A DNA stretch of 49,541 nt, taken from the NCBI GenBank assembly GCA_017483125.1, contig JAFULU010000283.1:1-49541 (forward strand). Direction: 5' to 3'. Below the pieces are notes generated by a model that saw only the letters and a list, made by a program, of their open reading frames with translations, was not told where the DNA came from and searched no databases. A program made the translations under genes and the position numbers. Shown here in pieces: positions 13,046-42,002 of the stretch. Position 1 is the stretch's first letter. Each line of letters begins with the position of its first letter. The stretch comes from Clostridia bacterium (GTDB lineage Bacteria > Bacillota > Clostridia > Oscillospirales > CAG-272).

Positions 13046-14998
13046 TCAGCGCAAAACGCAGAAGCTATCCTCCCCCAGCGTCAGCACGCCGTCGGCGTAG
13101 GATACCTCGCCGCAGGAGTAGGCGATCTTCCCTGCCGTTTGGACGGGGACGGTCACCTCGCCCTCGCCGCGGTGGACGGCGATCACCACGCGGTCGCTTC
13201 CGTCTTGGGCTGCTCTCTCATAGGCGATATGGGTCTCGCCGTGGTGGAGGATCTTAAAGTCGCCGCCGTGGAAGGCTTTGGACTTGCGGAGGTCACCCAG
13301 GGCGCGGTAGTGGGTCAGCAGATCGGCGCGGGTGGGGTTATTCAGATCGTGCCAGGGGAAGGGGAAGCGGCAGAAGGGGTCGTGGTAGCCCTCCATGCCC
13401 ACCTCGTCGCCGTAGTAGACCGAGGGGATGCCGAAGACGGTGAACTGCAAAGTGGAAGCCAGCTTCAAAAGGCGGGCGGCCTTCTCTCGCTTTGCGGGGG
13501 AGAGGCGGGCGGTGGCTAATTCTTCGTTGGGGCGGTCGTAGTCCTCCCAATCGGAGCCGAGGACGGTCAGGATACGCTCGGTATCGTGGGTGCCGATGAG
13601 GTTCATGAGGGAATCCGACACGCTCCTGGGGTAGGAGGCGTAGAGCTCGGTGAGGGTGTGGTAGAGCATCTCGGCGTCACCGTCGCGGATGAAGGCCAGG
13701 ATGCCGGATCGGACGGGGTAGTTCATGACGCTGTCCAGCTGCTTACCCTGAAGGTAACGGCGGCGGTTGCCGTAGGCCACCTTATCGGCGGCGTTCTCCC
13801 AGACCTCTCCGATAATGACGGCGGGGCCGTCCTTGCGGTCTGCCGAAGCGTTCTTCACCGACACCCGCAGCTCGTCCAGAAACTCGTCGCATAGCTCGTC
13901 GGCCACGTCCAGACGCCAACCGCCGATGCCCTTTTTCACATAGTGGGCGCAGACGCCGTTCTCCCCTGTGAAGTAGCGGCGGCAGGCCTCGGTGCTATGG
14001 TTGAGCTTGGGGAGGATGGGGATGCCCCACCAGGATTCGTACTCGTCGGGGAATTTTCGGAAGCAGAACCACTTGTTGTAGGGAGAGTCCTCGGCCTGCA
14101 CCGCGCCGACGGTGGGGTAGAGGCCGTAGCGGTTGAAGTAGCGGCTATCGTCGCCCGTGTGGTTGAAGACGCCGTCCAGGACGATCTTCATGCCGTATTC
14201 GTTCGCCTTGGCGATGAGGTGATCCAGCGCGGGCTCGCCGCCAAATCCCCCGTCCACGGTCATATAATCACCCGTGTCGTATTTATGGTTGGAGTAGGCC
14301 TCGAAGATGGGGCTGAGGTAGATGACCTTGACACCGAGGGTGGCCAGGTAGTCCAGCTTTTCCGCCACGCCCCAGAGGTTGCCGCCGAAGTGGATATGGT
14401 TGGTGAGGTGGGCACCGGGGTAGGCGGGGTACTGGGGGATGCCTCCCTCCCAGTCGGGGTTGATCTCGGGGGCGCGAATGCCTGTACGGCGGTGGGTCTC
14501 GCCCTCACCGCGGCAGAAGCGATCCACGAAAACGTGGTACATGACCCCCTCCCCGAACCAGGCGGGGGCGGTATAGTCGGCCTCGTAGACCAGCATACGG
14601 AAGGCCGCGCCGTCCCGCTGAACGAGGTCGAAGTCCACGTTGTTGATGCTGTCGGTGAAGAGGGTATCGGCGTTGCGGACGAAAAGCAGACGGTAGTAGA
14701 ACAGGCCCGAGGGAGCTTTCCCGCAGAGGGCAGAGGTGTTCAGGGTCAGCTCGTAAGTGTCGGTGAGGGTATCCATGTCCTCGAAGACGAACTCAAAGGG
14801 AGTATCCTTGGCGGTACAACCGTCGCGGTTGAGGCGCAGGACCACAGCGGAGGCACCGAGGGTGCGGGGGCAGGTGACCACAAGGCGGACGGTCTCGCCC
14901 AAGGGGTGCGCCCCGAGGTGGGTGACGTCGCGGCCGTCGGCGGTGTATTTGCGGAAGGTGACGGTAGCGGGGGCGTCGAGGGGGAGTCTGGGAAGCAT
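13046..14998 (-). CDS. GH13 alpha-amylase family glycoside hydrolase (neopullulanase/cyclomaltodextrinase-like)
   Basis: Conserved GH13 regions DGVFNHTG, GWRLDVADE, EVWE and GTHDTER. I chose the ATG at 14998 (MLPRLPLD); the TTG at 15034 lies inside the repeat motif. Confidence 0.85.
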   Translation of the reverse strand: MLPRLPLDAPATVTFRKYTADGRDVTHLGAHPLGETVRLVVTCPRTLGASAVVLRLNRDGCTAKDTPFEFVFEDMDTLTDTYELTLNTSALCGKAPSGLFYYRLLFVRNADTLFTDSINNVDFDLVQRDGAAFRMLVYEADYTAPAWFGEGVMYHVFVDRFCRGEGETHRRTGIRAPEINPDWEGGIPQYPAYPGAHLTNHIHFGGNLWGVAEKLDYLATLGVKVIYLSPIFEAYSNHKYDTGDYMTVDGGFGGEPALDHLIAKANEYGMKIVLDGVFNHTGDDSRYFNRYGLYPTVGAVQAEDSPYNKWFCFRKFPDEYESWWGIPILPKLNHSTEACRRYFTGENGVCAHYVKKGIGGWRLDVADELCDEFLDELRVSVKNASADRKDGPAVIIGEVWENAADKVAYGNRRRYLQGKQLDSVMNYPVRSGILAFIRDGDAEMLYHTLTELYASYPRSVSDSLMNLIGTHDTERILTVLGSDWEDYDRPNEELATARLSPAKREKAARLLKLASTLQFTVFGIPSVYYGDEVGMEGYHDPFCRFPFPWHDLNNPTRADLLTHYRALGDLRKSKAFHGGDFKILHHGETHIAYERAAQDGSDRVVIAVHRGEGEVTVPVQTAGKIAYSCGEVSYADGVLTLGEDSFCVLR

Positions 14999-22594: not shown

Positions 22595-23521
22595 TCAGGT
22601 GTTCTTTTTGGGTTTCAGGAAATCCAAGAAGGATCTTTTTTGGGGCTTCTCCTCCGCTCTCGCCAGGGTGATGGCCTCGATGAGGGAGGTGTCCGCATTG
22701 GAGTTGGGAACATTGACCGAGAAGAAGATGCTGCTGTTGCACCGGCGGGGGACCATGATCGGTCTTCGGTCGCGGCCGATGATCTGAAAATCCCGCTTTT
22801 TGAAGTAGAACAAGCTGCTCTCGCAAAAGAAGAAGCCGTTTCCGTCCTCGCTATGGGCCCAGCCCACCGAGGAAAGCTCCTCCATGGTGGGGCACTCGTC
22901 AAAGATCTTGCCGTACAGCTGGAAAATGATCCAATGGTCGGCCACCTCGGGGACCACCTTGGACCGGTAGGAGATGTCGTCCTTGGCCTTCCGCATCACG
23001 ACGTATTTGCCGTCGCAGGCCTTGAAGAAGGCCTCGTCGAAGTGGGTCTTTTTTCCGTACATTTCGGGGATATAGGGCTTGTCGGCAGTTTTCAGCCGAA
23101 AGGCCACCACGTCCCCCACCTCGAAGACCGACTCCAGGTTCAGCTTGATCCGGATCTTCTTTTTCTCCCCTTGGGGGGACAGGAGCTTTTCGCGGAACTC
23201 GGCCAGCGCCTTTTTTCGTTTCTGTAGGGTCTTTTCATCCTCCGCCCACAGCTCCAGGCCGAAGTCCTCGTCGATCATTTGGACGGCGCGGTCGCGGACG
23301 TCGTCGGTGAGGATGCCCTTGCGCCACATGAAATCCGCCAGAGAGTAGTAGTAGTTGCACCACTCCTCCTCGTCGGACTCGCGGCAGATGTGGGTGCGGA
23401 CGTAGGCGTCCAGCTTCTCCAGGGCGGTCTCCACGTCGTAGTAGTAGAAGGCGGCCTGGTATTCGTATTTCAGGTCTTGGGCGGTATCGTTGCCCGTGAT
23501 GCTGACGTTCCATGCGCCCAT
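22595..23521 (-). CDS. hypothetical protein with a DUF4259-like N-terminus
   Basis: ATG at 23521 with AAAGGAG upstream. MGAWNVSITGNDTAQDL resembles the MGAWG..DND.A.D start of DUF4259 proteins (from memory, unverified). Its stop lies 12 nt before the ARH gene start and overlaps that gene's RBS. Confidence 0.45.
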   Translation of the reverse strand: MGAWNVSITGNDTAQDLKYEYQAAFYYYDVETALEKLDAYVRTHICRESDEEEWCNYYYSLADFMWRKGILTDDVRDRAVQMIDEDFGLELWAEDEKTLQKRKKALAEFREKLLSPQGEKKKIRIKLNLESVFEVGDVVAFRLKTADKPYIPEMYGKKTHFDEAFFKACDGKYVVMRKAKDDISYRSKVVPEVADHWIIFQLYGKIFDECPTMEELSSVGWAHSEDGNGFFFCESSLFYFKKRDFQIIGRDRRPIMVPRRCNSSIFFSVNVPNSNADTSLIEAITLARAEEKPQKRSFLDFLKPKKNT

Positions 23522-23546
23522 GGGAGGCTCCTTTCGGGAATGCAAA

Positions 23547-23581
23547 ATTTAAAATGCAAAATGCAAGATCAAGAAACGGGG
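23547..23581. repeat. truncated A-type heptamer array
   Basis: GAATGCAAAATTTAAAATGCAAAATGCAAGATCAAGAAACGGGG parallels the left arm plus core start of the 9691-9735 copy (…AAATGCAAAATCAAGGAACGAGAG). There is no matching inverse arm. Confidence 0.6.
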
Positions 23582-23582
23582 G

Positions 23583-23930
23583 TTAAATTTGGGTTTATCG
23601 GTGGGTTTGCTACCCGTAGCGAATCGCGAATTACTATGTACGCGTTCTCCCTCACCCGCCTGCGGGTGGGAGCTCCCTCCCGGAGGGAGCCTTGGGGCGC
23701 GGGGCAAAATCACTTATCGGGCAACAGATTTCCGCGGGGCAAGGTATGAGGCCCCCTCCGGGAGGGGTAGCGAAGCGGCAACGCGGTAGTGAATGGCCGC
23801 CTGTGGCGGGCAGAGCCGCGTTGTGACCGACCCGCAGGGAGACCTCCCGCGAAGCGGTGGGGGAGCCTGCGTACATCGGGACCATGATATTCTTTCGGTT
23901 TTTCAAACCAACCGCTAAATGGCAATTTAC
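23583..23930. repeat. 348-bp TIR-bounded element with a GC-rich, multiply nested hairpin core (candidate structured RNA or MITE)
   Basis: Left end TTAAATTTGGGTTTATCGGTGGGTTTG. Right end CAAACCAACCGCTAAATGGCAATTTAC (23904-23930) is its imperfect inverse. A long-range stem pairs 23636-23659 with 23854-23876, and several helices nest inside. Confidence 0.6.
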
Positions 23931-23937
23931 AGGTTTC

Positions 23938-25887
23938 TCACTCGTACATCGCCAGCATCTTATCCAAGTGCTTGAGGAACTGGGCGGGTCTGGCCTTGAT
24001 GAAGGTCTCGATGCGCTGGGCGGCCTTGCGCCAGCTGCGGGCGTCCGAGATCATGCTGTGGCTGTAACCCGACCAGCGGTCGATGTGGTCGCCCATGATG
24101 GGGTAGGCTTGATCGTAGGCGGTTTGGTAGAGGTCCATCAGGTAGGCGTTGGCCTCCTCGGAGGCGAGGGTGCGGCAGAGCTCGGCGAAGTCGGCGCGGA
24201 AGGCGTCGTCCCGCATGAGGAAGGCGAAAAGGCCCTGGAGGTAGAGGGCGTCGTTGTACTGCTGTCGGTCGCCGTAGCCCTCCACGTAGTTGGAGAGCAC
24301 CCACTCGAACATATCCACCGTGGGGGTTGTCTCGATCTCGGGGAGGGGCGCGCCCTTATCGTAGCGGTTCATGGTGAAGTCCATGTCGCGGGTGGCGAAG
24401 CGCCATTTGCCATCAGTGATGGCGATACCGTCCATGGGAGCACCCGTATACCGCCAGACACGGATGTTGTTGTGGGGCCAGTCGGTGTTCACGAGGTAGC
24501 AGGCGGCGGCCATGTATTCCAGGGCGTTGCGGAGATCCAGCTTGGATTCCACCTCGGCGAAGATCTTGCGGTACTCGGCCTCCGAGGCGTTCACAGCCCC
24601 CGCGGCCTTCTTGCAGAGGGCGATCCAGTCCTTCATCTCCTTCTGGGCGGCGGCCTCGGAGTCGGTCTCGTAGAAGAACCAGGAGCCGCAGAAGCGGCAT
24701 TCTCCCGCGTTTCTGTGATCTCCGCAGGCGCGGGTGGTATCCAGCTCGGACTTCACCACCACCACGTCGTTGTCGTCCACGCCGTAGAGCCGCTTGATGT
24801 AGTCCTCGTTCTGGTTCTCGCGGAGCTCCAGGATGCCGTAGTACTCGCCGTTGAGGTAGACCACGGCGAAGTGTGCGTAGGACATCTGGACGTTCGGGGC
24901 GTACTTGGCGATGAATTCGTTGGCGATGCCGTCGCGGAGGAGGGTGGGGCGGTCGGGGTCGGCGGCGGTGGAAAGGAGGGCGTCGTTACCGCCGTTGCGG
25001 AGGATGAGGCCGTCGTACTTGTCCAGCACCTTCCCCGCGTTCTTACCCGCGATGACGGTGCGCTCGGGGAAGAAGGGGTAGGTGAAGGTGCCCAGACCCA
25101 CGTAGGGCTCCTCACCGAAGTAGCCGTCTTTGCGGGCGATGATCTTGAAGGATTTCTGGGACAGGGCGCGGGAGGAGCCGCCGAAGAGGCGAAGACCCAC
25201 GTCCTGGGAGATGATACGGGTGCCGTCGGGGGCCAGGATCTCGGCGTGGGCGGCCCGCTCCACCTTGGCGTGGACGTCGCGGTACATGGCCTTGAGATCG
25301 TCCTCGTCGCAGGTGAGCATGACGGTGTAGTGGAGGCCCGCCTCGGCTTTGGCGGAGATATAGGTGTGGGTGATGACCTGGCCCGTCAGCTTGCCGTCGG
25401 CGTCAAAGCAGGCGGCGCGGATGGTCATGCCCTCCCCCTTGTCGGCGGCGATCTTAATGGCTTCCTTATACTCGGTGGAGCGCTTGGTGGGGACGGATCC
25501 GTCGGTGGTGTAGCGGACGGTATAGCCCTCGGGGGCGGTGATCTCCACGGTCTTGGCGCGGGCGGTGTAGAGACCGCCTACCTCCGAGAAGGTGGGGTAG
25601 ACCTCCGCCAGAGGGGAGCCGTCACCGATGAGGGAATCGGGGGCCTCGGGGGTGGAGGGCTTGTCGGTCTCGGCAGGATCGGTGGGAGCCTCGGGATCGG
25701 CGGGAGTGGTACCGTCGGGGAGGGTCAGATCGCCGCCGTTTTCGGGGGCTTGGGTCGTTGCGTCGGCGGGGTCTGTATCGGAGGGGCCATGGGTCTTGTC
25801 ACAGGCGGTCAGCCCCGCTGTACCCAAAAGAAGGAGCGCCAGCAGGAGGGCGGCGGCGCGGGTAGTAAGATTTCTCGGATGATTCAT
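23938..25887 (-). CDS. CotH kinase-family lipoprotein with an N-terminal chitobiase/Fn3-like domain
   Basis: Lipobox LTAC. CotH-type motifs LRLFGGSSRALSQKSFKI, LILRNGGND and YLNGEYYGILELRENQNEDY. 649 aa. Confidence 0.7.
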   Translation of the reverse strand: MNHPRNLTTRAAALLLALLLLGTAGLTACDKTHGPSDTDPADATTQAPENGGDLTLPDGTTPADPEAPTDPAETDKPSTPEAPDSLIGDGSPLAEVYPTFSEVGGLYTARAKTVEITAPEGYTVRYTTDGSVPTKRSTEYKEAIKIAADKGEGMTIRAACFDADGKLTGQVITHTYISAKAEAGLHYTVMLTCDEDDLKAMYRDVHAKVERAAHAEILAPDGTRIISQDVGLRLFGGSSRALSQKSFKIIARKDGYFGEEPYVGLGTFTYPFFPERTVIAGKNAGKVLDKYDGLILRNGGNDALLSTAADPDRPTLLRDGIANEFIAKYAPNVQMSYAHFAVVYLNGEYYGILELRENQNEDYIKRLYGVDDNDVVVVKSELDTTRACGDHRNAGECRFCGSWFFYETDSEAAAQKEMKDWIALCKKAAGAVNASEAEYRKIFAEVESKLDLRNALEYMAAACYLVNTDWPHNNIRVWRYTGAPMDGIAITDGKWRFATRDMDFTMNRYDKGAPLPEIETTPTVDMFEWVLSNYVEGYGDRQQYNDALYLQGLFAFLMRDDAFRADFAELCRTLASEEANAYLMDLYQTAYDQAYPIMGDHIDRWSGYSHSMISDARSWRKAAQRIETFIKARPAQFLKHLDKMLAMYE

Positions 25888-38142: not shown

Positions 38143-38275
38143 TATCGAAGTTGTCGTCTTCTCCATCGAATTCATCCCCGCTGTATGCAATATTCTCGTT
38201 CACACGAAGAGCAAGAAGATCGGCTTCGGGCTTCACGTAGGGGCGACGTTCGGTTTGATTCAGATTCTTTTCCAT
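38135..38275 (-). CDS. unannotated 46-aa ORF (MEKNLNQTERRPYVKPEADLLALRVNENIAYSGDEFDGEDDNFDNA)
   Basis: AAGGAG lies 7 nt upstream of the ATG at 38275, immediately after the large LRR gene stop. Its stop overlaps the next gene's start. It is below the ORF-track length cutoff. Confidence 0.5.
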   Translation of the reverse strand: MEKNLNQTERRPYVKPEADLLALRVNENIAYSGDEFDGEDDNFDNA

Positions 38276-38286
38276 GATATACTCCT

Positions 38287-41200
38287 TTACTGTTCTTGTT
38301 TGTAGGCAATGGCAGAGCGGCCGTAGGCGTAGAGGGCTCTGACCAGCGCGGCCATTTCGGTATTCTCGCTGTTCTGCTTGGCGTAGACGTAGGACCTCAC
38401 GCTATAGGTCAGGGTCTGGATCACCTCACCATCCACCGAAAGCTCGGCGGTGAATACCTTGTCGAACTCGGTGGCGTAGATGGGATCGGTGTAGAGGATG
38501 TAGGTGTCCGTCGTATCCTCCACGAGAGTCAGAGCCGCGGCGGTATAGGTTTTACCGTTCACGGTCAGAGTTACGCCCGTAAGGTCAGCGGCCTTGACCT
38601 TGAAGTAGAGGCGGTTAACGTGGCCGAAGCGTACGCCCGCGGAGGTGAAGCGAATGTCATCGCGGGTCTTGTCCGACAGGGTAAAGTCGGTGTCGGTCAC
38701 GGCCTCCCACTCGGAGGGAGCGGCCGCGAAGCCCTCGCTGACGGGGGTGTCCACGTTGAAGCCGGTGTAGTCCTGGGCGGCGTCGCCGTAGACCAGGAGG
38801 TCGGCCAGGAGGGTGGCCAGGGCCTTGTTATCGGGGTTGGCGGCCAGGGCGTCGTCGCAGTACTGACGGACGGAGTAGGACGCCTTGGCATCCACCACCA
38901 GCTCGGTGCCATCCTCCAAGGTCAGAATCAGCTCGGCCTTGATATTCTCACCCATGCACTGGGGAGCGATGCCCGTCAGGGAGAAGACGTACTCGCCCTC
39001 GGTCTCGGCGGGCACACCCGTGACGTACTCGGTCTTGCCGCGATAGGTGAAGCGCATGGCGGGAGTGCCGTAGGAGGGGTCGGCCTTGGCGTAGTAGTTC
39101 ATGGTAAGGGAGGTGCCCAGGGTGAGGGAGGCGGAGGTGAGGTCGAAGTAGTCATCCAAAAAGTGGAATGTAGCGCAAAGCAGTTCGTCATTTTCTTCGG
39201 ATATAGTCACTCTTCGCCACTCGTTTTTAGTGGCACCAAAATGAACATCAGTAAGGCTTTCACATCCCGCAAAAGCATAGGGTTCAATACTCGTCACGCT
39301 ATGAGGAATCGTAATGCTAGTCAAACTACTGCAATTGTTGAACGTGTAATGGTTAATACTTTTTAGTCCTTTAGGTATGGTAACGCTTGCCAAACTACTA
39401 CAATTTCTAAATGCACTAATCCCGATATACTTTACCCCATCAGGAATCACAATATCTGTCAAACTCTCACAATCACAGAACGCAGAATCGCCAATACTGG
39501 TCACACTTTTCGGAATAGTGATGGTTTCTAAGCTTCCGCAACCGTTGAATGTGGACTCTCCAATGTTTGTCACTCCTTCGGGAATAGTAAAACTCTTCAG
39601 ATTTACGCAACCGCTGAAAGCAGTATCACCAATACTCTTCACGCCTGCAGGAATGACGATGCTCGTCAATTCCTTACAAGCCAAAAAAGCCTTGCTTCCG
39701 ATACTTATCACACTTTCGGGAATGACAATACTCGTCATTTTTTCACGAGCATAGAATGCATAATCACCAATGTTTGTTACGCTTCCATCCACCGGAATAG
39801 TACTGTTATAGCAACCGGCAACTAGCGTTTTGCTTGCTGTCTCAATCAAGCAATTGCCAGCACTGTGGTAGACTGGATTTCCTTCCGCAACTGTAATTTG
39901 ACTCAAATTAGAACAACCCAAAGCATAACTGCTAATGTACACCACTTCTTTGGGAATATGGATTTTTGTTAGATTACGGCAAGCCTGAAATGCATAATCA
40001 CCTATGCTTATCACGCACTCGGGAATAGATATACTCGATAAATAATAACACCCGTAAAAAGCATAGTCACCGATATGTATCACGCTCCCATCCTTAGGAA
40101 TGATACTATTTCTACAACCTGCAATTATTGTTTTGGAAGTTGTATCAATCAGACAATTTCCACGACTGTAATATCTAATATTACCATCCGCAACCGTAAT
40201 CTGTCTTAAGTTGTAACAAAAACCAAACGCAGAATTACCGATGCTATTGACATTTTGGGGAATATATATGCTTGTGACTTTCACACAACTCTCAAATGCG
40301 CCTTCTCCAATGCTCGTCACATTTTCAGGAATATTAATGCTTGTTAAACCACGGCAGCAGTTGAATGCGTAATCACCAATGCTCGTCACATTTTCGGGAA
40401 TGGTAAAACTCGTTAAGCCATAGCAATCAGCAAGTAAATGATCTTCAATTCTCGTTAAGCCAGTTGGAAGATGGACGGTGCGGAGACTCTTGCACCCCGA
40501 AAATGCGGAACTGCCAATTTTTGTCACACTTTCAGGAATACCAATATACGTCAAACTTTCGCAACTTGAGAATGCACCCGCACCAATGCTCGTCACTCCT
40601 TCGGGAATATGAATGCTTTTCAGATTTCTGCATATCCAAAATGTGCAATCATCAATCTTCGTTACATTTTCGGGAATAACAACACTCACCAAACTGCTGC
40701 AATTGTAGAATGCATACATTCCAATATTCGTAACGCTTTGAGGGATCGAAATATTCGTTAGGCTATCACAATCGAAGAATGCCCAATCAGCTATGCCAAC
40801 CGTATCCTGACGAAATACCGCTTCAGTAATACCCGACACATAACCGACTACCCATTTATCCACATATTTTAACCCATTGTAAGTTTCAATCACCTTTGAA
40901 CATCCCTTAAACGCATCCTTCCCCATACTTATCACGCTATCTGGAATAACAACGCATATCAAATTATTGCAATCAGAGAATACTCCTGCACCGATACTTG
41001 TCACACCTTCTGGAATCGTGATGCTCGTGAGGCTACTGCAATTGTAGATTGCATAATTGCTAATGCTCGTTACGCTGTTGGGAATCGTGATGCTCGTGAG
41101 GCTACTGCGGTAAGAGAATGCAGCATAACCAATGCTCGTCACCGCATCCCCCTCCGGGCTCGTCGGCGGGATATTCACCACGGTATCGGTACAGCTCCCG

Positions 41201-41379
41201 ATCCCGCTAACATAGCAAGTCCCGTCGCCGTTGGAGGTGAATTCCAACCCCTCCGAATAAACAGGCTCCTCCGCGCTCGCCATCACCGCGCCGATCAATG
41301 CGATCAACGCGATCAACGCCCCACAGATGCCCAGCCGCAAAAGCTGTTTCAATCGGACGTCTTTACTCTTTTTCGTCAT
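38287..41379 (-). CDS. large secreted BspA-type leucine-rich-repeat protein (about 1030 aa) with a non-LRR C-terminal region
   Basis: MTKKSKDVRLKQLL…IGAVMASA signal peptide. About 25 LRR_5 modules, then a roughly 290-aa GC-rich C-terminal region. ATG at 41379 with AGGAGG 9 nt upstream. Confidence 0.8.
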   Translation of the reverse strand: MTKKSKDVRLKQLLRLGICGALIALIALIGAVMASAEEPVYSEGLEFTSNGDGTCYVSGIGSCTDTVVNIPPTSPEGDAVTSIGYAAFSYRSSLTSITIPNSVTSISNYAIYNCSSLTSITIPEGVTSIGAGVFSDCNNLICVVIPDSVISMGKDAFKGCSKVIETYNGLKYVDKWVVGYVSGITEAVFRQDTVGIADWAFFDCDSLTNISIPQSVTNIGMYAFYNCSSLVSVVIPENVTKIDDCTFWICRNLKSIHIPEGVTSIGAGAFSSCESLTYIGIPESVTKIGSSAFSGCKSLRTVHLPTGLTRIEDHLLADCYGLTSFTIPENVTSIGDYAFNCCRGLTSINIPENVTSIGEGAFESCVKVTSIYIPQNVNSIGNSAFGFCYNLRQITVADGNIRYYSRGNCLIDTTSKTIIAGCRNSIIPKDGSVIHIGDYAFYGCYYLSSISIPECVISIGDYAFQACRNLTKIHIPKEVVYISSYALGCSNLSQITVAEGNPVYHSAGNCLIETASKTLVAGCYNSTIPVDGSVTNIGDYAFYAREKMTSIVIPESVISIGSKAFLACKELTSIVIPAGVKSIGDTAFSGCVNLKSFTIPEGVTNIGESTFNGCGSLETITIPKSVTSIGDSAFCDCESLTDIVIPDGVKYIGISAFRNCSSLASVTIPKGLKSINHYTFNNCSSLTSITIPHSVTSIEPYAFAGCESLTDVHFGATKNEWRRVTISEENDELLCATFHFLDDYFDLTSASLTLGTSLTMNYYAKADPSYGTPAMRFTYRGKTEYVTGVPAETEGEYVFSLTGIAPQCMGENIKAELILTLEDGTELVVDAKASYSVRQYCDDALAANPDNKALATLLADLLVYGDAAQDYTGFNVDTPVSEGFAAAPSEWEAVTDTDFTLSDKTRDDIRFTSAGVRFGHVNRLYFKVKAADLTGVTLTVNGKTYTAAALTLVEDTTDTYILYTDPIYATEFDKVFTAELSVDGEVIQTLTYSVRSYVYAKQNSENTEMAALVRALYAYGRSAIAYKQEQ

Positions 41380-41415
41380 TACTGTCAACCTCCTATGATA
41401 AAATTTGACAATCTT

Positions 41416-41444
41416 ATTATAGTACACTTTTACACTAAAGTCAA
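41416..41444 (-). promoter_or_regulatory. sigma-A type promoter for the large LRR operon
   Basis: Minus strand reads TTGACT-ttagtgtaaaagtgtac-TATAAT with a 17-nt spacer. It sits back-to-back with the XRE gene upstream region. Confidence 0.7.
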
Positions 41445-41501
41445 TAGGAATAGTAAATATTTGATATAATGAATTATAACCAAATTTTCGTAGGAGTTTT
41501 T

Positions 41502-41720
41502 ATGCACTACACCAAACGCCTCCGCGACCTCCGCGAGGATCACGACAAAACCCAACAGCAGATCGCCGACGTCCTCGGCACCTCCCAGACCATGTACGCC
41601 CGCTACGAACGCGGGGCCAACGAGCTGCCCATCCGCCATCTGCTGACCCTCTGCGGCTACTACGGTGTCTCCGCCGATTACATACTCGGCCGCACCGACA
41701 ACCCCAAGACGAACAGATAA
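41502..41720 (+). CDS. small XRE-family HTH transcriptional regulator (72 aa)
   Basis: MHYTKRLRDLREDHDKTQQQIADVLGTSQTMYARYERGANELPIRHLLTLCGYYGVSADYILGRTD is a Cro/C1-type HTH. TAGGAG RBS before the ATG at 41502. Confidence 0.85.
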   Translation: MHYTKRLRDLREDHDKTQQQIADVLGTSQTMYARYERGANELPIRHLLTLCGYYGVSADYILGRTDNPKTNR

Positions 41721-41758
41721 CCGCCCGTGTCACGGTCACGCAGGCGGTTTTTGTTTTG
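41719..41758 (+). terminator. intrinsic terminator after the XRE gene
   Basis: AACCGCC…GGCGGTT followed by TTTTGTTTT. Confidence 0.7.
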
Positions 41759-41764
41759 CCCAAT

Positions 41765-41814
41765 ATCAAAAAAGCACGCAGACTCTCCTTTCGGAAAACC
41801 TGCGTGCTTTTCAG
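41765..41814 (-). terminator. strong hairpin terminator, probably ending the rny transcript (works on both strands)
   Basis: AAAGCACGCAG-18 nt-CTGCGTGCTTT flanked by A- and T-runs. It lies about 190 nt downstream of the rny stop. Confidence 0.7.
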
Positions 41815-42002
41815 TTCGCTTTATACCAAACCGCTTTTGGGGTACTTGTGTGGAGTACTGCCTTAGCGGCGATCATGGACAGGGGGGTTTTATGTTCACT
41901 GTATGGAAACCGCATTTGGCTGTGCGGACAACAGCACCCGTATCTGTAATACGATAAAGCTGGTCCCTCCGGGGGACTGGGTGATTCCGTGGGCCGCTTT
42001 GA

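Follow-up and report, generated by a model that had tools for sequence, protein, structure and literature searches.

The 348-bp hairpin-rich region that separates a CotH gene from a 308-aa gene in the window (the whole stretch of 49,541 nucleotides analysed here) is very probably made up of two repeat elements, one nested in the other and both non-coding and non-autonomous, and is not a dedicated RNA gene. The outer layer, called the host element below, is one copy of a ~270-bp repeat that occupies 23584-23767 plus 23847-23929, and a 79-nt structured module is nested within it. The composite is closest to the MITE, REPIN/BIME and NIME repeats, and the ~270-bp repeat element is undescribed. The original prediction had left the choice between a structured RNA and a composite mobile element. 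The second half of that proposal holds, with a ~270-bp repeat bounded by terminal inverted repeats, a 79-nt repeat nested in it and an insert that is polymorphic at the same locus. A single 348-nt structured RNA gene, on the other hand, was rejected, as it has no Rfam match, occurs in dozens of copies in unrelated contexts and lies at sites whose orthologues freely swap the interior for unrelated sequence. Part of the RNA idea survives for the 79-nt module, which may act as RNA or as single-stranded DNA and whose inner hairpins have a strand-specific structure supported by covariation.

The spacer that holds the 348 bp is bounded by the CotH stop codon (23938) and the ATG of the 308-aa gene (23521), both genes being read from the minus strand (Table 1). 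The CotH gene has a Pfam match, and its neighbour, labelled "DUF4259-like" in the original prediction, belongs to no Pfam family. The region had also been described as the longest ORF-free stretch in the window; with crude gene calls it is one of the longest gaps, not the longest. Elsewhere in the window, 3.8 kb (38191-42002) were left uncalled by a GC3-based gene caller. Between the element and the ATG of the downstream gene, a leader of 62 nt has, at 23528-23582, (AATGCAA)-type heptamers (TGCAAAATTTAAAATGCAAAATGCAAG), which are the building block of another interior family, and the contig depth at these positions is 100-400 times the flank depth in all metagenomes.

Table 1. Features of the composite element and its flanking genes (positions in the window)
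Feature	Position	Strand	Evidence or remarks
Whole composite: ~270-bp hairpin repeat (host) and nested 79-nt module	23584..23929	+	Own-genome BLAST, family alignment
Conserved terminus, TAAATTTGGGTTTATCGG(TGGGTTTG)	23584..23609	+	Beside downstream gene start; logo of 420 genome copies
Host left arm and centre	23610..23767	+	Hairpins CCCGCCTGCGGGTGGG, GCTCCCT-CCCGG-AGGGAGC, CCCCTCC-GG-GAGGGG
Nested structured module, 79 nt	23768..23846	+	Polymorphic locus, repeat copies, covariation, covariance model
P1	23778-23787 with 23815-23824	+	Module stem
P2	23794-23801 with 23805-23812	+	Module stem
Invariant internal loop	AGTGAA (23788-23793) and GA (23813-23814)	+	Module
Host right arm, diverged inverse of left arm (CCGCGAAGCGGTGGGGGAG...)	23847..23903	+	Family alignment
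Degenerate partner terminus, minus-strand reading TAAATTGCCATTTAGCGGTTGGTTTG	23904..23929	-	20/27 match with left end
Upstream flank: CotH kinase-family gene	23938..25887	-	Pfam CotH E = 1.2e-28; stop 8 nt from element
Downstream flank: 308-aa gene, no Pfam family	22595..23521	-	ORF list and Pfam scan; ATG 62 nt from conserved terminus

All 13 of the 13 motifs quoted in the original prediction are present where it had placed them. The end motifs (23583, 23904) are imperfect inverted repeats, as proposed, and the two motifs of the long-range helix lie at 23636 and 23854, with GCTCCCTCCCGGAGGGAGC at 23672, the internal near-repeats at 23697 and 23732, and CCCCTCCGGGAGGGG at 23753. The pair CAACGCGG/CCGCGTTG at 23779/23816 encloses GCCGCC-TGT-GGCGGG at 23796, and these inner hairpins are the two stems of the module. 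One further proposed pairing, of CCTGCGGGT (23659) with ACCCGCAGG (23830), is not an ancestral helix and is accidental, since host sequence pairs there with the inserted module. Folding of the 348 bp gave -171 kcal/mol on the plus strand (z = -2.05 against dinucleotide shuffles) and -159 kcal/mol on the minus strand (z = -3.85), and neither a sigma-70-like promoter nor an intrinsic terminator was detected in the region. The Rfam scan suggested at the outset returned 0 matches at the gathering score in the whole window (Rfam 15), and relaxing the E-value threshold to 10 added chance-level matches only; the sole near-match is a riboswitch (16 bits), which contains a k-turn. A T:G apposition in the outer helix had been taken as a sign that the plus strand is the RNA. 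This argument fails at the family level because A.C is as frequent as G.T between the arms, the two kinds of inter-arm mismatch being balanced in 10 of the 10 largest interior families.

The two layers were separated by their distribution in the genome itself, a 3.5-Mb MAG of 384 contigs. When the 348 bp were used as a BLAST query against it, bases 3-185 and 262-348 matched at least 15 other loci at 79-95% identity, and bases ~182-262 matched a set of loci distinct from these. The genome contains at least 12 full copies of the ~270-bp repeat, and alignment of the window copy with 11 full copies of the family revealed one clean insertion, in the right arm. The left arm and centre (23610..23767) are 79-95% identical to copies at C67:27414, C152:2569, C356:10072 and others, and a variant of the partner terminus, AAATTGCNGTTT, recurs in these closest copies on contigs C67, C152 and C356. 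In this 270-bp family the conserved terminus lies beside the downstream gene start in eight of nine co-directional contexts, the copies listed for this bias being those on C67, C152, C356, C140, C214, C305 and C88 and that of the window; the bias is absent from the wider superfamily of elements that share the terminus.

That superfamily is restricted to the genus and defined only by its terminal inverted motif of ~18-24 nt. A logo of 420 genome copies reads TT|CAAATTKGGGTTTRTCGG..G.T, with no conservation of the flanks beyond it. When up to 3 mismatches are allowed, the terminus CAAATTTGGGTTTGTCGG is found 427 times in the genome and once in controls that were reversed or complemented (overall, about 390-430 termini and 0-1 in controls). 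There are 163 paired elements, mostly of 210-300 bp and including two composites of ~349 bp, and 146 unpaired termini that run into contig ends, from which it follows that the repeats fragment the assembly. About 21 unrelated, hairpin-forming interior clusters share the 18-mer terminus, among them inverted heptamer arrays, inverted pairs of GTAGGG-hairpins and CCTTCCCC...GGGGAAGG...GATGAGG modules. There are also bare palindromes of 37-39 bp that consist of two termini only (CAAATTTGGGTTTATCGC-TCT-GCGATAAACCCAAATTTG; e.g., C59:9927-9965, C102:104-140 and C112:2979-3017), and these are the end hairpins of larger GTGAAAT-heptamer elements. A genome-wide polarity of the conserved terminus toward start codons was considered and dropped, as 206 termini face gene starts and 182 face stops. 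No flanking direct repeat of 2-10 bp was found in 161 paired elements: flanks matching over 4-10 bp occurred in none of them, and matches of 1-3 bp were at the shuffled expectation, although a duplication could be hidden in the outermost 8 bases, CAAATTTG, which are palindromic. Positions 1-8 of the terminus are as conserved as the remainder (1.1-1.9 bits).

The lineage consists of uncultured Eubacteriales/Clostridia of ruminant and other animal guts, and the count of the 18-mer across the species of the genus is bimodal, with 118-389 copies in nine species and 0-14 in the others; 0 copies were found in 16 other families of the order. A scan of viral contigs yielded one ordinary element copy in a GC-rich contig and otherwise unrelated chance matches. 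A Chi-like role for GAAGCGG was dropped because the k-mer skew, which mostly reflects codon usage, says nothing on this point, and literature string searches for the element and module motifs returned nothing relevant.

The behaviour of these elements over evolutionary time is best seen at orthologous sites. A comparison with relatives, which the original prediction had proposed for the CotH spacer, turned up unrelated interiors between unchanged junctions in related species and short, element-free spacers in more distant ones. At the CotH locus, two spacers (L010 and L011) have the same two junctions as the window, GAAACCTG|TAAATTGCNGTTTA... and ...AAACCCAAATTTR|ACCCCGTTTCTTG, around interiors that are unrelated, and two others (L009 and L012) agree in another left junction but differ in their interiors as well. 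The spacer of L015 is a bare version of 56 bp, L017 has an inverted pair of GTAGGG-hairpins with decayed ends, and in L013 and L016 neither the element nor the 308-aa gene is present at this locus. The joined flanks of nine further loci of the 270-bp family were searched across the genus, and 34 regions were fetched. At six of these loci, relatives with flanks that are 85-98% identical had unrelated interiors of 132-580 bp ending at the same positions, and more distant relatives had spacers of 9-50 bp with no element. At one of the tested loci (locus 5), where the flanks are 98% identical, the 270 bp seen here correspond to an unrelated 172 bp in the genome G005. Occupied sites are thus re-used with new interiors. 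Interior modules without 18-mer ends were also seen (L017 and L053-L056).

The 79-nt module is a separate mobile unit, polymorphic and site-specific, as the locus exists without it and near-identical copies of it are found at the same position in diverged hosts. It is inserted between GGGAGGGG and CTCCCGCG of the host right arm, a target that can be written as GGGAGGGG^GCTCCCGCGAAGCGG. In public contigs anchored in the unique 3' end of the CotH gene, the same locus is found with GCT replacing 23768-23846 (a joint of 23767 to 23847). This module-free allele was seen in the DNA runs X16 and X9 as well as in the RNA-library (metatranscriptome) runs X23 and X24, and run X9 holds both alleles, so the difference is a DNA polymorphism and not splicing. 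Copies of the module average 97.7% identity, compared with 76% for the 45-nt host flanks. In the close relatives G005 and G010, copies that are 96-100% identical to that of the window occupy the same position in hosts of the 270-bp family, next to 45-nt flanks that are 69-86% identical, and where the module sits in hosts of other types, it stands in place of three bases at a similar G-rich junction. There are eight copies in this genome, and the module occurs in 17 of the 26 genomes of the genus, including those of species nearly without the 18-mer.

Covariation analysis, which had likewise been suggested, supports a conserved structure for this 79-nt module. In an alignment of 32 distinct copies with 21 predicted pairs, 96% of the cells are paired and ten pairs have compensatory double changes. 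Changes on both sides of a pair amount to 52 cells, compared with 14 ± 3.6 in column shuffles, where none of 500 reached the observed value, and with 1-4 cells in slid-partner controls. The unpaired parts GGGUAGCGAAGCGG, the asymmetric loop AGUGAA(UG)/(CA)GA and GUGACCGAGCCGCAGCGAGAC are near-invariant, the single-stranded segments UAGCGAAGCGG, AGUGAAUG/CAGAG and GUGACCGAGCCGCAGCGAGAC are invariant, and two G.U pairs that close P1 are near-invariant on one strand only. With its closing pairs, GG-UAGUGAAUG/CAGAG-CC, the loop may resemble a k-turn, that is to say a three-base bulge and then tandem G.A/A.G. Of 151 genomes sampled from the order, 34 contain the module according to a covariance model (R1), with 1-15 copies each, and these represent 22 of 97 genera; the conservation of the module reaches at least 12 families, and no Rfam family covers it in eight loci from other genera. 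In this genus its orientation to the flanking genes is mostly antisense (23 anti/anti vs 4 same/same), in other genera it is mostly sense, and no constant neighbouring gene was found across 12 loci in the latter. A second subfamily in other genera (L121, L122, L124, L131 and L125) keeps the core GG-NAGUGAAUGAC...GUCAGAG-CC with a different, tRNA T-arm-like closing stem, GGGATTCGAAC...GGTCGAATCCC, and adjoins the same ~390-aa gene in three related genomes.

These properties of the module raise the question of whether it, rather than the 348 bp in their entirety, functions first of all as a structured RNA whose multi-copy spread is secondary, namely a k-turn-like protein-binding hairpin that acts within a transcript or as a small RNA. 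The strong covariation of its stems, the invariant single-stranded segments, the high sequence conservation across at least 12 families and the one-strandedness of the G.U pairs at both ends of P1 all speak for such a role, as do its presence in RNA-library contigs and the fact that its only Rfam near-match is the k-turn-containing riboswitch. The same contigs, however, carry no strand information and could reflect DNA carry-over, the orientation to flanking genes changes from antisense in this genus to sense elsewhere, and no neighbouring gene is conserved. Together with the presence or absence of the module at one locus between strains, and its fixed site inside other repeats, this renders a primary RNA function unlikely, although it is the foremost of the alternatives and the conservation pattern of the module would fit a functional RNA equally well. 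Far harder to credit is the idea of an inverton, in which the entire region would flip to switch a promoter of the downstream gene. Inverted repeats do enclose the region, which is intergenic and lies upstream of a gene, but no sigma-70-like promoter was detected in it, eight DNA runs contained no strand-switch joints, and the elements number in the hundreds and lie downstream of genes as often as upstream (182 stop-facing vs 206 start-facing termini). Since the interior is nearly palindromic, an inversion would change little, and we regard this reading as extremely improbable.

For the host element, two other explanations were weighed, and both are judged to be quite improbable. Terminal inverted repeats, small size, lack of an ORF and high copy number are the textbook pattern of a MITE, and the host could be a classical one, with many interiors under one end motif, whose DDE transposase is missing from the draft assembly and whose target duplication is hidden in the palindromic CAAATTTG. 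The 146 unpaired termini at contig ends lend this some credit, as they imply that multi-copy sequence is badly assembled. Against it, no duplication is present outside the ends in the 161 elements, the conservation of end positions 1-8 fits element sequence better than target sequence, no pair of termini 0.8-3 kb apart has its own transposase, and the exact re-use of junctions across species is not expected for a low-specificity TT/AA target. That same re-use, seen with unrelated interiors at seven loci across species, is what would be predicted if interiors were exchanged as cassettes, a mode suggested for the dRS3 repeats in the NIMEs of Neisseria, in which one short inverted motif flanks interiors of more than 100 families and the involvement of a recombinase has been put forward (PMC1797815). 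The lack of target duplication and the existence of bare 37-39-bp terminus-terminus palindromes also agree with exchange of this kind. No recombinase is linked to the elements, however, which are single units and not arrays; public contigs at this locus contain no inverted or recombined joints, and interiors are also found without termini (L017 and L053-L056).

The nested composite of two non-autonomous repeats would depend on enzymes that act from elsewhere, and candidates were sought in the genome and across the genus. No autonomous element with these termini was found in the draft assembly of 384 contigs, in which 146 termini lie at contig ends, and among the terminus pairs spaced by 0.8-3 kb none has a transposase that belongs to it. 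A transposase lies within only one long pair, at C3:100-1428, and is the 334-aa enzyme of an IS30-family insertion sequence with the ends TCAAGTGCAACA, located inside a CCTTCCCCAGCGGGGAAGG-type repeat element. This insertion sequence was rejected as a parent on account of its single copy, its different ends and its own position within a repeat. IS200-type Y1 genes (PF01797) were also set aside, being absent from this genome at E <= 1e-3 and uncorrelated with 18-mer copy number across the genus, where the IS200-like TnpA genes have no associated module or terminus. A diverged RAYT-like HUH gene, missed by PF01797 at E <= 1e-3, is nonetheless present in a single copy at C175:14537-15118; its product has 194 aa and the motifs PDHIHGI and SFFDEVIR. 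Two copies of the REP GTAGGGAGCGACGCCCTCGTCGCTCC, inverted to each other, lie in frame within this gene (about 14696-14725 and 14911-14937). This REP differs from the host element and the 18-mer and is also one interior family of the 18-mer-bounded elements. RAYT-like genes occur in 15 of 26 genomes of the genus and are unrelated to 18-mer abundance. No enzyme in these searches could be linked to either layer. Inspection of the ORFs next to the viral-contig 18-mer, made without a Pfam scan, revealed no linked recombinase.

We infer that mobilisation takes place in trans by a non-DDE route. Both layers would be copied by enzymes encoded elsewhere, either through recognition of single-stranded-DNA hairpins, in a REP/REPIN-like manner involving HUH/RAYT proteins, or through site-specific recombination at the termini. 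Such a route is favoured by the lack of target-site duplication, the hairpin-dominated architecture, the GTAG-hairpin (REP-like) modules and the RAYT-like HUH gene. An occupied site is probably a preferred substrate for replacement, so that related species keep identical junctions while swapping the interiors. RNA-library contigs cover the region, albeit with no strand information and with DNA carry-over possible, and the element, which would be co-transcribed with its neighbours, is probably a passive passenger in read-through transcripts. A bolder proposal, which we put forward tentatively and regard as doubtful in its entirety, is that the module is an undescribed, order-wide class of small structured mobile elements and that the 18-mer termini are at the same time the "landing pad" of a cassette-exchange system. 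The k-turn-like loop and the flanking single strands of the module might in that case be the core, for recognition or for catalysis, with which it inserts itself site-specifically into hairpin repeats, by way of a protein or in a nucleic-acid-guided or ribozyme-like step. Cassette exchange at the 18-mer would rewrite intergenic hairpins at fixed chromosomal sites in a manner distinct from both DDE transposition and the classical spread of REPINs.

Whatever the enzymes, the elements account for a large share of the intergenic DNA of the genus, about 200 per 3.5 Mb, and they break assemblies and give rise to spurious ORFs and spurious "structured RNA" predictions. After a site has been colonised, its junctions stay exactly the same as the interiors are replaced between species, even between flanks that are 98% identical. 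This points to a targeted exchange mechanism for which, the NIME hypothesis aside, we know of no bacterial precedent that has been worked out. Covarying stems and invariant loops, as combined in the module, are commonly accepted as proving a functional RNA, yet the module behaves like a site-specific insertion. Identification of its recogniser would yield a new RNA motif or else a new class of small mobile elements.

Among known systems, REPINs are familiar mainly from Proteobacteria, and there is much in the present elements that recalls them. Like REP, REPIN and BIME repeats, the elements are intergenic, hairpin-forming and non-autonomous, are present in hundreds of copies, lack target duplication and combine modules as mosaics. 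Several interior families are true inverted pairs of GTAGGG-hairpins, the genome has a single-copy RAYT-like gene that carries one of these REPs, and the 79-nt module itself begins with GGTAGCG and repeats GGTAGYGAAK. REP, REPIN and BIME repeats are mobilised by RAYT (HUH Y1) transposases (PMC3116915, PMC3337134), whereas the RAYT-like genes here do not track 18-mer abundance. Moreover, GTAG is absent from the 18-mer terminus that unites the elements, and this terminus is not palindromic. The host element of the window lacks the unit of GTAG plus an imperfect palindrome, which other interior families and, in part, the 79-nt module (GGTAGCG..., GGTAGTG...) do have, and it is not a REP doublet.

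The IS200/IS605 elements share with those described here the lack of duplication, seamless presence or absence, hairpin dependence and, in the case of the 79-nt module, a strand-specific structure, but their ends are not inverted repeats, in contrast to the inverted ends seen here. Bacterial MITEs such as the Correia elements, RUP and ERIC (reviewed in PMC3184786) resemble the present elements in their size of 100-350 bp, terminal inverted repeats, lack of an ORF, long hairpins and intergenic location near genes, and nested insertions are known among them; they differ in that the elements here have neither a target-site duplication nor a cognate IS, that ~21 unrelated interiors share one end, and that replacement is exact at fixed junctions. 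In the NIMEs, 20-bp dRS3 inverted repeats (consensus ATTCCCN8GGGAAT) flank more than 100 families of 50-150-bp RS elements in tandem arrays of the form motif-RS-motif-RS (PMC1797815). There, as in the 21 clusters found here, one short conserved inverted motif frames many unrelated interiors, the loci are dynamic between strains and recombination at the motif has been proposed. The dRS3 repeats nevertheless form long arrays and are unrelated in sequence, whereas the elements of this gut Clostridia genus are single units with inverted ends and with interiors that are long palindromes.
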